From assembly GCA_022763045.1 (NCBI GenBank), contig JALEGI010000003.1, positions 12,289-76,288 of the forward strand: DNA of 64,000 nt, read 5' to 3'. The notes below the pieces were generated by a model. That model did not search any database. It saw only the letters and a list, made by a program, of their open reading frames with translations, and had not been told where the DNA came from. The stretch's first letter is position 1. Every line of letters starts with the position of its first letter. A program made the translations under genes and the position numbers. Shown one piece after another: positions 48,460 through 53,144 of this stretch. This DNA is from Simkaniaceae bacterium. Its GTDB lineage: Bacteria; Chlamydiota; Chlamydiia; Chlamydiales; JACRBE01.

Positions 48460-48929
48460 AAAGATCAGTTATTTTCGCCCTATCTCTCTTTCTAATTGGT
48501 TGTTCAAGTAGCAGTGGCAGCGTTAGGGCCCAGCGCGCTTTTTACAAGGCCTATTCCAAATCAATCAGCGAGAGTAAAAACGTGCAGTACGTCACACCAT
48601 CGACCTACTCTGAGGGAGAAATCCACACCCTTGGGGCAAATTTAACAGTGACAGAGCTTGTAGATGAGTCAGTAGGGACAACACTTATTGCTGCAGAAGC
48701 ACATCGACTACTCACAATGGCTAATAAAGATAAGAAGTTAAAGCGCTACCTCTCACCTTACCCCCTCACTTTGGATCGTGTTGATATGACTATTGACTTT
48801 CGAACAGATGATGAAAAAATCCCCGAGCGCCCCTACCTTTCAAAGATAGAACTGCGCCGAGGGATTATGTACTTCTCATATAAAAATGAGTCACGGTTTA
48901 AGCAAGAGCGCCTATCACCTTTTAAATAG
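48453..48929 (+). CDS. Hypothetical lipoprotein
   Basis: Lipobox LIGC; overlaps the gadB stop. Confidence 0.7.
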   Translation: MLKRSVIFALSLFLIGCSSSSGSVRAQRAFYKAYSKSISESKNVQYVTPSTYSEGEIHTLGANLTVTELVDESVGTTLIAAEAHRLLTMANKDKKLKRYLSPYPLTLDRVDMTIDFRTDDEKIPERPYLSKIELRRGIMYFSYKNESRFKQERLSPFK

Positions 48930-50591
48930 CTGTGGAGCTCTTTTTTCAAGATCCTGAATTAGATTCTCGACAACCTTTGGAAGTCCCTTCGAAGAATCGA
49001 GTACGATTTCAGCGTTAACAGGTATCTCATAAGGATCAGAAATTCCTGTAAACTGTGTGATCTTACCCTCTCTTGCCAGACGATAGAGTCCCTTTACATC
49101 CCGGTCTTCGCATACTGTAAGAGGCGTATTAACAAAAACCTCTATGTATTTTCCTTCATTACTAATAATCTGGCGATTCGCTTGGCGATCTTCTTCATAG
49201 GGAGCAATGTTAGCACACAAGCAGATCCCGCCGCTTTTTACAATAAGTGAGGCAACATAACCAATGCGTCTTACATTAATTGAGCGGTCCTTTTTTGAAA
49301 AACCGAGCCCATTTGAGAGATATTTACGAATGTTATCTCCATCTAAAATCACAACGGGTTTACCAGAAGTTGCATTGATGCGCTCTTCTAAAGCCTTACA
49401 AAGAGTTGTTTTGCCAGATCCTGATAGTCCAGTTAAATAGACGCAAACACCCTCTGATTTTCTGAACTCAGACTTTAAAATTTTGATCACTTCTGGAAAT
49501 GAAAACCAAGGGGGGATGGGGAGATTTTCTTTGAGCATGCGACGAAACTCTGTTCCAGAAATGCGCAATGCTGAAGCATCTTCTGGAACTTCATCTGCAG
49601 GGAAATATCCCTTGAGCTCAGGGACATAGACAATCTCTTTAGAGGTCACAATTTGAATTCCAAGGTCGTCTTTGTATTTTTTCAGCATGCTATGAGCTGC
49701 ATAGGGGTGAAAAAAAGGTGTTCCATCTGAGCGGCGTACAGAGGGCCCTGCATGATCGCGTCCAACAACAAAATGGGTGCATCCGTAATTTTTTCGAATT
49801 TGCGCGTGCCATACAGCTTCGCGAGGTCCTGCCATTCTCATTGAGAGTGGAAGTAGTGAGAGTTTGACAGAGTTCTCAGGATAGTACTGAATGAGCGCTT
49901 TGTAACACTCAATGCGTTTGTTTGGCTCGATATCACCAGGCTGTGTGATTCCAACAACAGGTTGCAAAAGCAATTTCGCATCTTCGCCAGCTTGGCCCAT
50001 GCAATAGCGTGTCAAAGCAAGATGACAGCGGTGAAGAGGATTGCGTGTTTGAAAGCCAACGACTTTCTTCCAACCGCTCTCTTTGATCATCTGACGGCAC
50101 TCAGCAGGTGTCAAACGGTACTCAGTATGACTAAAATGTCTAGGTGAGGCGACTTTTTTTAGACGACCAGTAAGGTAATAACTGTCGCGGTAAGATAAGA
50201 TACGCGAAATATAGGGATGACACGGTTCGGTAGATCCAAAAACGGATAGACATTCTTTTTCTACATCAGGTTGATACATCTCTTCGATTGTTAGCTCTGC
50301 AATGGGGAAATGCTCATCATCGCAAAGAATCACACCACGACTTTGACCAATTTTATCCCTTTCGGTTTGCGTGATTGGCAAGACGATTGGCATTGTCCAA
50401 AGTTTTCCATTCAAAAGGCGGCAATTATCTAAAACGCTATGATAATCTTTTTCACTTAAAAAAGTGTCAAGCGGATCAAACGCTCCGTCTATTAACATTT
50501 CTAAGTCGCAGACAAGGCGTTTATCAAGTTTTATTGAAGGTGTTGCAAAGCAAAAGGCAACAGACAGAAGAAATAATAGGCACGTTTTCAA
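48915..50591 (-). CDS. sat/cysC: Bifunctional sulfate adenylyltransferase/adenylylsulfate kinase with N-terminal signal-like peptide
   Basis: CDLEML..GAF.PL, FQTRNPLHRCH, GPREAVWHA, GRDHAG, GLSGSGKT, LDGDNIR, DVKGLY, FTGISDPYE; TTG start overlaps upstream stop. Confidence 0.93.
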   Translation of the reverse strand: MKTCLLFLLSVAFCFATPSIKLDKRLVCDLEMLIDGAFDPLDTFLSEKDYHSVLDNCRLLNGKLWTMPIVLPITQTERDKIGQSRGVILCDDEHFPIAELTIEEMYQPDVEKECLSVFGSTEPCHPYISRILSYRDSYYLTGRLKKVASPRHFSHTEYRLTPAECRQMIKESGWKKVVGFQTRNPLHRCHLALTRYCMGQAGEDAKLLLQPVVGITQPGDIEPNKRIECYKALIQYYPENSVKLSLLPLSMRMAGPREAVWHAQIRKNYGCTHFVVGRDHAGPSVRRSDGTPFFHPYAAHSMLKKYKDDLGIQIVTSKEIVYVPELKGYFPADEVPEDASALRISGTEFRRMLKENLPIPPWFSFPEVIKILKSEFRKSEGVCVYLTGLSGSGKTTLCKALEERINATSGKPVVILDGDNIRKYLSNGLGFSKKDRSINVRRIGYVASLIVKSGGICLCANIAPYEEDRQANRQIISNEGKYIEVFVNTPLTVCEDRDVKGLYRLAREGKITQFTGISDPYEIPVNAEIVLDSSKGLPKVVENLIQDLEKRAPQLFKR

Positions 50592-51121: not shown

Positions 51122-51131
51122 AAAGCGCTCC

Positions 51132-53144
51132 TTATTTAAAGTACATATCTAGAAAAATATCGGGATTGGTCATAAAAAGCTCTTGGTTTTCCCGCAATTG
51201 TAATCCCATTAAGCGAAATAGAGCCTGAACCTCACCAGCATCAATCCCTTTTTGACGCATTTTTTCTGAAATCGAGAGAATCATTTTCTCTTTTTCTTGG
51301 ACCATTTCGCCAGTTGTTACCAGAGCTATTTGTTTTTGATGGGCAGGTGTGAGCACCCACCTTTTATATCCGTAGTGCCCTGAAGATGCGACAAACCCAA
51401 GAGCAACAAAAGCGAGAACTGCGATGGCAATTCCACCAGTAGATGCCCCAATGGCAGCAGCACTGAGCAGAAGAAAGAGAGAAGAAATTGTAAAAATCAC
51501 TGTCGTCGCAAGAGAGAGCTTTTGGTTTTTAATTTGATTTCTTAGCCTACTAGAGTCAATAAATAATTTTCGATCCTCTAGTTGAGTAAAGTCTTGCACC
51601 ATTTTACTTGAGGGATATGTTTGAGCAAGAGCGCGCATCTTCTTAACTCTGAACTTGTTTTGCTTAATTTGTGCTACAGTATTTGAAATATCAGAAAGTA
51701 GCGAAGCAGTCGAGTAAATGCCTGCAATAAGCCCAAGACCTGCAGCTCCAATGCCGACTGCTGCAAAAATGGGCAATGATGAAGAGGCTATTGTTCCAGA
51801 GCGAATGGCATTTAAAACAGTCGCCGTTGAGCTCACTGTAAAAGCTGCACTCACGAGACCCGAAATGGGACGGTCCATGAGCTCATTGGAGTAGGCCTCT
51901 CTCTCTTTGTAAACCTGGTCAAAGGCCTCAATCAACTGAGCGCGCACTTGAAGAGAAATTCTTAGATGATCTTCCGAAATTTTCAGTCGATTTTGATGTG
52001 CCTCAACTTCTCGAGGACCCGCACCAACCTCTTGAGATTTAAGCTTATCGATCTCAACGCGCAAATGATTGATTGCCCCATTGACCCGATGCTCCACCCC
52101 ACGTAGCAGGCGAATTTGATCGCTCAAATTTCGCATGCGAGAGCGCGCTTTTCGAAAGCGCCAAACAGAGTAGATTGTTGAAGCGAGTCCTGTTGCAAAA
52201 AAAATGCTCGAGCTACCAACTGAGAGCTGGGCCGAATGAGTCGCTGGCGCTCCACGACTACCAAAACCGAGGTGTCCATGTGTGTAGCGAGCTCGAGATG
52301 CCAGGCCCATACTAGTTGCTGCCATGCTAACATGACCCATAATGCGCTTCTTGTCAAAAACCAGCTTTAGCACCTTTTGCGCATAAGAAATATCTTCCGA
52401 AAATGGCCCACTAGATTGCTCCATTTGAGCGAGCTGTAGCTGCTCGCCCATCAGAAAATCGTCTGCCCGCTGCAGTCGAACCTGCTCAATTGTTTGTGGC
52501 ATTTGATCACTAAAAACTCTCTTGAAGGCGTAAAAGCTCGCGTTGAGGTGGAGAATAATCTGGTCGACCTCTTCCTGTGGTATGATTGAACAATAGAGTT
52601 CATTGTTGCCAATCTCATGGGGGCGAGACAAATCACGATTGAGAGCATTGAAGATATCAAAGAGTTTTAGGACATGCTCTTCGGAAAAAAACTTTTGAGC
52701 ATCAACACTACTTTCTCCGCGCCCCTGCGCTAAACCTGTTAACATACGCATCCCCTCATCGAGATAGCTAGTTAAAAGCTTTGCCTTTTCATACAAAAGG
52801 GCTCTTTGAGAAATTTTCTTTAAATCGCTTCCCAGGTTGCGAAGTCGAGTGAGCCTCTCGTGAATGGAATCAAGCTCATCAGGCTCTGCATTTGAGCAGC
52901 AAACAACTCCCCTCTCGATAGACTCAATACGCGCACGTACGGCCTGCTCCTCTCTTTGAAAAAGTTCACTAATAGAGCTTCTTGAGATTTCCCGGCTGCC
53001 AATAATTGCTTGGAACCTGCCCCCCACACGCGCTTGCATTTGAGAAATTTCACTTCTTGCAGTTGAAACAAGAGTATCTTCGTGCCCCTGGAGCTCTCGA
53101 GCGCGGCGTATCCGCTTAGGGGCTATTTCAGTTCTATCAGCCAT
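51132..53144 (-). CDS. Coiled-coil protein with bilobed hydrophobic domains (Inc/translocator-like)
   Basis: No Sec signal; G/A/S-rich hydrophobic hairpins alternating with coiled coils. Confidence 0.7.
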   Translation of the reverse strand: MADRTEIAPKRIRRARELQGHEDTLVSTARSEISQMQARVGGRFQAIIGSREISRSSISELFQREEQAVRARIESIERGVVCCSNAEPDELDSIHERLTRLRNLGSDLKKISQRALLYEKAKLLTSYLDEGMRMLTGLAQGRGESSVDAQKFFSEEHVLKLFDIFNALNRDLSRPHEIGNNELYCSIIPQEEVDQIILHLNASFYAFKRVFSDQMPQTIEQVRLQRADDFLMGEQLQLAQMEQSSGPFSEDISYAQKVLKLVFDKKRIMGHVSMAATSMGLASRARYTHGHLGFGSRGAPATHSAQLSVGSSSIFFATGLASTIYSVWRFRKARSRMRNLSDQIRLLRGVEHRVNGAINHLRVEIDKLKSQEVGAGPREVEAHQNRLKISEDHLRISLQVRAQLIEAFDQVYKEREAYSNELMDRPISGLVSAAFTVSSTATVLNAIRSGTIASSSLPIFAAVGIGAAGLGLIAGIYSTASLLSDISNTVAQIKQNKFRVKKMRALAQTYPSSKMVQDFTQLEDRKLFIDSSRLRNQIKNQKLSLATTVIFTISSLFLLLSAAAIGASTGGIAIAVLAFVALGFVASSGHYGYKRWVLTPAHQKQIALVTTGEMVQEKEKMILSISEKMRQKGIDAGEVQALFRLMGLQLRENQELFMTNPDIFLDMYFK

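Follow-up and report, generated by a model that had tools for sequence, protein, structure and literature searches.

A PAPS synthase with a conserved predicted Sec leader in chlamydiae: a candidate donor enzyme for glycan sulfation outside the cytoplasm

The closest known relatives of the enzyme described here, the fused ATP sulfurylase/adenosine 5′-phosphosulfate (APS) kinases of Aquifex and fungi (Sat), are cytosolic. Bacterial kits that sulfate with 3′-phosphoadenosine 5′-phosphosulfate (PAPS), such as NodPQ/NodH, RaxPQ/RaxST and mycobacterial CysDNC/Stf0, likewise do their work inside the cytoplasm or on its face, and in eukaryotic Golgi sulfation PAPS is made by cytosolic PAPSS, imported by SLC35B transporters and used by luminal sulfotransferases. 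Here we describe a bifunctional ATP sulfurylase/APS kinase (Sat/CysC, PAPS synthase) that opens with a predicted Sec leader, encoded in a 64,000-nucleotide stretch of a Simkaniaceae bacterium (contig JALEGI010000003.1; hereafter the window). The gene, sat, lies on the minus strand at 48915..50591 and encodes 558 amino acids from a TTG start. The genome under study is called G000, G-numbers denote genomes of the chlamydial phylum, and L-numbers denote loci fetched for comparison.

Over its whole length the protein matches the Aquifex aeolicus enzyme (2gks) and the fungal enzymes 1m8p and 1i2d (E 1e-152), with the same PUA-sulfurylase-kinase order and the same motifs, but those enzymes are leaderless, whereas the G000 enzyme begins with a 16-residue Sec-type leader. 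NodPQ/NodH-type kits likewise comprise a PAPS synthase that serves a sulfotransferase without CysH/CysI; the synthase and transferases of G000 differ from them by their export leaders. As in the Golgi, the transferases would be placed in an extracytoplasmic compartment, but in G000 the synthase itself is export-tagged. Glyco-gene clusters of giant viruses hold Sat/APS kinase and sulfotransferase genes (Ma457/Ma461), as described in the available text of PMC10117803. Their sulfation genes stand among glycosyltransferases as in chlamydiae, and homologues on viral contigs are about 50% identical and fall in a neighbouring tree group; they differ in that all 30 viral-contig homologues compared are leaderless. 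In Chlamydia trachomatis, according to the part of PMC4829429 that is available, glycogen is built in the inclusion lumen by secreted enzymes from host UDP-glucose, so that normally cytosolic enzymes act there, too, outside the cell on high-energy host metabolites. That set, however, uses type III secretion and stores glucose, while the enzymes of G000 bear Sec leaders, include some that make donors and would serve to decorate a glycan. A paper on Babela also mentions an ATP sulfurylase of uncertain role, with no claim of a leader in the available portion of the paper (PMC4378268).

Judged by its sequence, 48915-50591 is an intact PAPS synthase with predicted PAPS-forming activity. The protein exceeds the curated cut-off of NF004040 (PRK05537; 687.9 against 669 bits), and Pfam places PUA_2, ATP-sulfurylase and APS_kinase in the usual order, with the sulfurylase catalytic domain at residues 157-374 (49470..50123; PF01747, E 2e-78), the kinase domain at residues 381-532 (48996..49451; PF01583, E 8e-59) and all catalytic motifs intact (QTRN 181, HxxH 187-190, GRDHA 277, P-loop 388). 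Among its close homologues, those with names belong to Chlamydiales, Waddliaceae and Chlamydiia, which, like the three full nucleotide translocases of the genome, marks the organism as a chlamydia-like bacterium; cluster look-ups gave names for none of ten homologues. Homology to 2gks starts at residue 18, directly past the predicted cut, and residues 1-16 (50544..50591, minus strand) are therefore an add-on. The N-terminus reads MKTCLLFLLSVAFCFA|TPS and has the makings of a Sec/signal peptidase I leader: a basic n-region (K2), an uncharged hydrophobic core, small residues at -3/-1 (CFA|T) and no lipobox, an anatomy like that of the BamA, DegP, OprB, TolB and porin leaders of the same genome (13 known exported proteins were compared). 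The leaderless N-terminus that is seen in non-chlamydial PRK05537 members is not found here. The next in-frame ATG, GTG or TTG codon is M32, within the motif CDLEM, which had made the leader hard to dismiss from the start. Leader calls, where not made by eye, come from our own hydrophobicity rule, not SignalP, and export is therefore a prediction. The rule errs in both directions, flagging a CTP synthase and G384 and missing G021, G031 L216 and G206 L215, and it passes 308 of the 1620 open reading frames (ORFs) of G000, of which 226 are soluble and shorter than 1200 amino acids, 185 of these having been domain-scanned.

Conservation in relatives bears the leader out. Sat/CysC is matched at E <= 1e-60 in 38 of 400 genomes of the phylum, and the leader is present in 30 of the 36 chlamydial proteins with a visible N-terminus (29 by rule, G055 by eye), the leaderless six being those of G010, G043, G053, G121, G186 and G351. 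The control set comprised 79 non-chlamydial bacterial loci among the matches listed, and none of the 78 with an alignable N-terminus has a leader; nor, by eye, does any of the 30 viral-contig homologues, among which the rule raised one false flag. Rows were left out where the N-terminus was missing (G206), at contig ends (G217, G167), for fragments (G004), for want of a score (G062) or of a parsed Gmd motif (L418), and for the stand-alone leader-bearing APS kinase of G119. The leaders diverge in sequence while keeping their character, in enzymes that are 43-59% identical, and cysteine content is alike in leader-bearing and leaderless chlamydial proteins (1.55 vs 1.59%); the mature G000 protein (residues 17-558) contains 15 cysteines. 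On this sequence evidence the leader is a clade-wide, chlamydial trait of Sat/CysC.

Its history is less simple than a single acquisition. In the trees (starred set of 20 rows), the leader-bearing enzymes form two groups, one sitting among bacterial enzymes and the other, which includes the G000 enzyme, joining a leaderless clade that contains giant-virus proteins; a single clade for all leader-bearing rows was rejected (p-AU 9e-05). Near-full-length leaderless Sat/CysC proteins of about 41-53% identity occur in some 30 viral contigs (L312-L345), many labelled GVMAG, and one clade of them groups with the chlamydial group of the G000 enzyme. Two gains of the leader, or one gain with a loss towards the viral side, remain in this unrooted tree.

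The recurring partners of leader-bearing Sat are sulfotransferases that, by the same rule, also carry leaders. We searched sulfotransferase families in 80 genomes and scored 59 returned loci, not all matches, for leaders. At least one family is present in 34 of 39 Sat-positive genomes as opposed to 12 of 41 others. Genomes with a leader on Sat have one on 25 of 30 sulfotransferase loci (18 of 20 genomes) and those with leaderless Sat on 2 of 9 (2 of 6 genomes), a concordance whose Fisher p of 0.013 is overstated since kin are not independent; leaders were also found on 11 of 16 loci from genomes without a Sat match and on three of four from partial cases. In 8 of the 30 genomes with a leader on Sat (G046, G114, G133, G144, G179, G286, G294 and G395), sat has a Pfam sulfotransferase no more than 5 kb away, often among leader-bearing glycosyltransferases. 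In G000 itself neither cysH/cysI nor a sulfotransferase adjoins sat, as the preliminary description had it, and the secreted sulfotransferase that it proposed to look for elsewhere in the genome was found, leader included, at C3:108239-108961. A further gene at C5:2454 looked sulfotransferase-like by eye and had no Pfam match.

Leaderless sat genes keep different company. Those of G010, G043 and G053 adjoin a cysQ-like gene (by eye), and in two of the three a sulfotransferase beside them is leaderless too, which is an ordinary cytoplasmic kit. Five genomes (G021, G031, G045, G049 and G050, two of them single-contig) have leader-bearing sulfotransferases, in G021 by eye, and gave no ATP sulfurylase match, only short P-loop APS-kinase matches, CysDN not having been searched separately and PAPS also requiring the kinase; they must therefore obtain PAPS externally or through a route that escaped detection. 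In G045 (L305), G050 (L306) and G031 (L307) leader-bearing sulfotransferases stand in tandem, with as many as 12 matches in one genome, and these three genomes are candidate users of host PAPS. Elsewhere a single pathway seems to mix compartments, to judge by predicted leaders: in G119 an APS kinase that stands alone and has a leader (L295:3514-4194) is encoded close to a cysD-like gene that has none, and in G352 a cysN-like gene adjoins the gene for a diverged Sat/CysC with a leader (L296).

Sulfation enzymes are not alone in carrying such leaders. Besides the expected periplasmic and outer-membrane proteins, the 185 domain-scanned, leader-positive soluble ORFs of G000 include about 21 glycosyltransferase domains (eight GT25, six GT2, two GT92, one each of GT10, GT11 and NodZ, and two RXYLT1-like), 10 methyltransferases, three GNATs, Gmd (C20:134647-135792), two phosphoribosyltransferases and a deoxynucleoside kinase-like protein. 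Among relatives, Gmd is leader-bearing in 12 of 28 loci, and all eight Fcl genes beside Gmd share its status; HPRT is leader-bearing in 6 of 15 chlamydial loci, a hint that, if the leaders are functional, purines may be salvaged extracytoplasmically. Leader status differs by pathway inside single genomes (G003, G046, G047): G003 has leaders on Sat and Gmd and none on HPRT, and G047 on HPRT and a sulfotransferase and none on Gmd. This variation argues against a genome-wide artefact. Leader-bearing Gmd+Fcl pairs are found in G050 (L404) and G014 (L406), and a leader-bearing Fcl-like gene adjoins sat in G286 (L164). At C6:20940-23689 of G000 (L042), a SulP-family permease has a leader-bearing phosphoribosyltransferase on either side, one APRT-like and the other HPRT-like by eye. 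A 26-kb run at C15:65700-91400 (L034, L040) holds about 24 leader-bearing genes, for glycosyltransferases (GT25, GT92, GT11) and methyltransferases, and is likely the core of the putative exported glycan pathway.

The metabolic setting is that of an energy parasite that does not appear to reduce sulfate. A tblastn search with chlamydial CysH and CysI found neither in G000, a genome 95% complete; one PF01507 match was rejected as CysH, being a TilS-type PP-loop protein. G000 has three full TLC nucleotide translocases, a SulP permease and type II secretion genes (GspE and a secretin). The preliminary description had reasoned that, the periplasm being devoid of ATP, the enzyme must be exported beyond it. 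A review (PMC6795091, available text) takes Npt1 to imply ATP inside the inclusion lumen and describes the major outer membrane protein as a porin in reticulate bodies, and ATP would have to cross the periplasm to reach a carrier in the inner membrane. Because of the three translocases, the lumenal ATP implied by Npt1 and the route of ATP to its carrier, we find the objection weak for such a parasite, and with it the need for export further out. A second suggestion, that the enzyme drains host ATP or sulfate, gains nothing from any of our tests. In C. trachomatis, as reported in the part of PMC6717882 available, proteins with Sec signals reach the inclusion lumen via type II secretion and are found in lumen and cytosol.

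We propose that the leader sends the PAPS synthase through Sec into the periplasm, from where type II secretion might carry it on to the inclusion lumen. Sat/CysC would there turn host-derived ATP and sulfate into PAPS and hand it to the leader-bearing sulfotransferase, which would likely sulfate a glycan built by the leader-bearing glycosyltransferases of the genome, the acceptor thus being bacterial. We consider it fairly probable, on balance, that a Sec-exported PAPS synthase uses host ATP in this way and supplies an extracytoplasmic, glycan-decorating toolkit. The proposal builds on the identity and motifs of the enzyme, the conservation of its leader, the concordance of its partners, the failure to find CysH/CysI, the translocases and the type II secretion genes. 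Inference begins with export itself and extends to the compartment, the origin of ATP and sulfate, and the acceptor. Periplasm and inclusion lumen would fit the data alike. The idea that PAPS is made for sulfation outside the cytoplasm, put forward in the preliminary description, is thus strengthened by the conserved leader and the leader-bearing sulfotransferase, but the tie it drew to an effector-chaperone pair next to sat is not.

A wider picture can be offered, more tentatively, as a possibility for which we would claim less than even chances. Many environmental chlamydiae may run a Golgi-like workshop outside the cytoplasm, in the periplasm or inclusion lumen. Donor enzymes exported via Sec (PAPS synthase, Gmd, Fcl and purine phosphoribosyltransferases) would act there alongside dozens of transferases for glycosyl, methyl and sulfo groups, drawing on host ATP, PAPS, S-adenosylmethionine and nucleotide sugars and producing a sulfated, fucosylated and methylated glycan. 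Some lineages would do without the synthase and take PAPS from the host; giant viruses would share the PAPS synthase lineage without the leader. We found no paper on exported Sat/CysC or on exported chlamydial sulfotransferases in a literature search whose coverage left out most subscription papers and all supplements. As a pattern in the genomes, we appear to be dealing with an undescribed localisation variant of a known pathway, real and clade-wide, with export as its predicted element. It is generally assumed that no ATP-consuming biosynthesis takes place in the bacterial periplasm; if the leaders work, chlamydiae would exploit host nucleotides not only by import but also by donor synthesis and glycan decoration on the outside. 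On this proposal, environmental chlamydiae should carry a sulfated glycan not yet described, with possible effects on attachment or survival. Working leaders would also reveal which host metabolites reach inclusion and periplasm, a question left open in the available text of PMC6795091.

Several observations weigh against the proposal. G002, G196, G217 and G329 have no match to the sulfotransferase families searched; in G186 the sulfotransferase has a leader and Sat has none, G121 is a borderline case, and one sulfotransferase without a leader occurs in each of G133 and G030. G000 has no leader on MetK, on a ManC-like enzyme or on RfbA, and tblastn found neither Fcl nor a leader-bearing CysQ, and an extracytoplasmic pathway would therefore be incomplete unless host or transporters fill in.

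It is conceivable, though unlikely, that the enzymes pass the outer membrane and sulfate and glycosylate host glycans or proteins, in the inclusion lumen or the host cytosol, rather than a bacterial glycan. The GNAT and SDR enzymes with leaders would require acetyl-CoA or NAD(P)H, molecules that are large for passage through porins, and the nearest leaderless group includes giant-virus enzymes, which we take to be active in the host cytosol. A route would be provided by the type II secretion genes of G000, and Sec-signal proteins of C. trachomatis have been seen in lumen and cytosol (PMC6717882, available part). However, the transferases cluster with methyltransferases and Gmd/Fcl in the manner of polysaccharide loci, and a eukaryotic cytosol makes PAPS already, so that a private synthase would add little there; the giant-virus homologues, moreover, are thought to serve the virus's own glycans, as far as the available text of PMC10117803 goes. 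We also doubt that the leader is non-functional or leaky, with PAPS made in the cytoplasm and the N-terminus a membrane tether or a by-product of gene gain. Export is, after all, predicted from the hydrophobicity rule, which 308 ORFs pass; the precursor-making MetK and ManC-like enzymes are leaderless, and every homologue with a solved structure is an enzyme known from the cytosol. A leader without function, on the other hand, would hardly be kept in 30 genomes and two tree groups at 43-59% enzyme identity, with BamA-, DegP- and porin-like anatomy and too short to span a membrane. Nor does that explanation fit its absence from the 78 controls among the matches listed, or a status that tracks pathway and not genome (G003, G047).

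The genes upstream of sat were the starting point for a different idea, namely that the synthase is translationally coupled to an effector and its chaperone. In the sequence, the arrangement is exactly as first noted: three minus-strand ORFs, in which a 670-amino-acid ORF (51132..53144) is followed after a 10-bp gap by a 177-amino-acid ORF (50588..51121), which shares a TTGA stop/start overlap with sat (50588..50591). The 177-amino-acid protein is small and acidic (pI 4.6), and its AlphaFold model (pLDDT 96) has a YbjN/class I type III secretion chaperone fold, with structural matches to DR_1245 (Z 16.8), VecA (12.2) and SicP (11.5), the top matches being YbjN-type (Z 16.8 and 12.8). The label of CesT-like chaperone is thus supported by fold; in sequence, Pfam gave no CesT match and only a weak YbjN match under the cut-off (E 3e-4), and the profile of the protein matched no PDB sequence. 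Distant matches occur in 27 of 60 relatives, several adjoining a long gene, which fits an effector-chaperone pair; by its modelled fold, the protein is likely the chaperone of the upstream 670-amino-acid gene. For the latter, the designation Inc/translocator-like is that of a candidate, with hydropathy as its sole basis. It has a hydrophilic N-terminus without Sec leader, one hydrophobic stretch at residues 452-483 and a bilobed one of about 50 residues at 542-592 that corresponds to the Inc pattern (about 40-60 residues, bilobed), but no homologue was found among 60 relatives or in the protein collection searched, and atlas matches were all under 0.9, of low recognition.

Whatever the nature of the pair, its position next to sat is likely local gene packing between chance neighbours, because the adjacency is seen only in G000, the genes flanking sat vary between genomes in the fetched loci, and 4-bp overlaps are common (163 of 1066 same-strand neighbour pairs in G000, ORF starts being approximate). 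In a tblastn search of all fetched loci, with flanks of 1.5-9 kb, sat and the chaperone occurred together only in loci of G000; of the 29 chaperone loci already known, the search picked up 24. The distance between sat and a chaperone match is 11 kb in G015, and in the four same-family genomes the chaperone was unmatched. Adjacency in a single genome had been set beforehand as the outcome that speaks against a functional link, and it is what the loci examined display; at most, the pair shares a transcript with sat. That sat forms one module with an Inc-like effector and the chaperone of that effector, whether to produce PAPS at the inclusion membrane or to drain ATP and sulfate from the host, is therefore very improbable despite the tight spacing, the chaperone fold and the bilobed stretch, being largely refuted by synteny and sitting ill with the unmatched neighbours, the frequency of such overlaps and the different export routes served by a Sec leader and a type III secretion chaperone. 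A promoter and terminator scan gave numbers like those expected by chance (9 vs 9.7 and 8 vs 6.2). Upstream of the three-ORF run, a leader-bearing GH130-like protein, one more glycan enzyme with an export tag, is encoded at 53181..54248 on the minus strand (PF04041, E 4e-14; leader by rule), by a gene that adjoins sat only in G000 among the fetched loci.

Other leader-bearing genes were seen in passing. At C15:157800-172300 of G000 (L035), leader-bearing RXYLT1-like and unassigned transferase-like genes stand among about eight secreted paralogues of 140-165 amino acids and a 963-amino-acid protein, which may represent a locus for fimbriae or surface proteins that has glycosylation of its own. 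The window holds a leader-bearing O-methyltransferase (59443-60468) and NUDIX hydrolase (60984-61448), and leaders are present, too, on a cyclopropane fatty acid synthase (C16:16936-18099), the deoxynucleoside kinase-like protein (C17:5249-5929) and an Fe/Mn superoxide dismutase (C3:130815-131453). A second, short secretin of 484 amino acids lies at 8159-9613 of the window, separately from C20, where the type II secretion genes are found. Finally, the window encodes a GshF-like glutamate-cysteine ligase/ATP-grasp fusion (15086-17320) and a glutamate decarboxylase (47101-48459), both of which give the impression of being unusual for chlamydiae.

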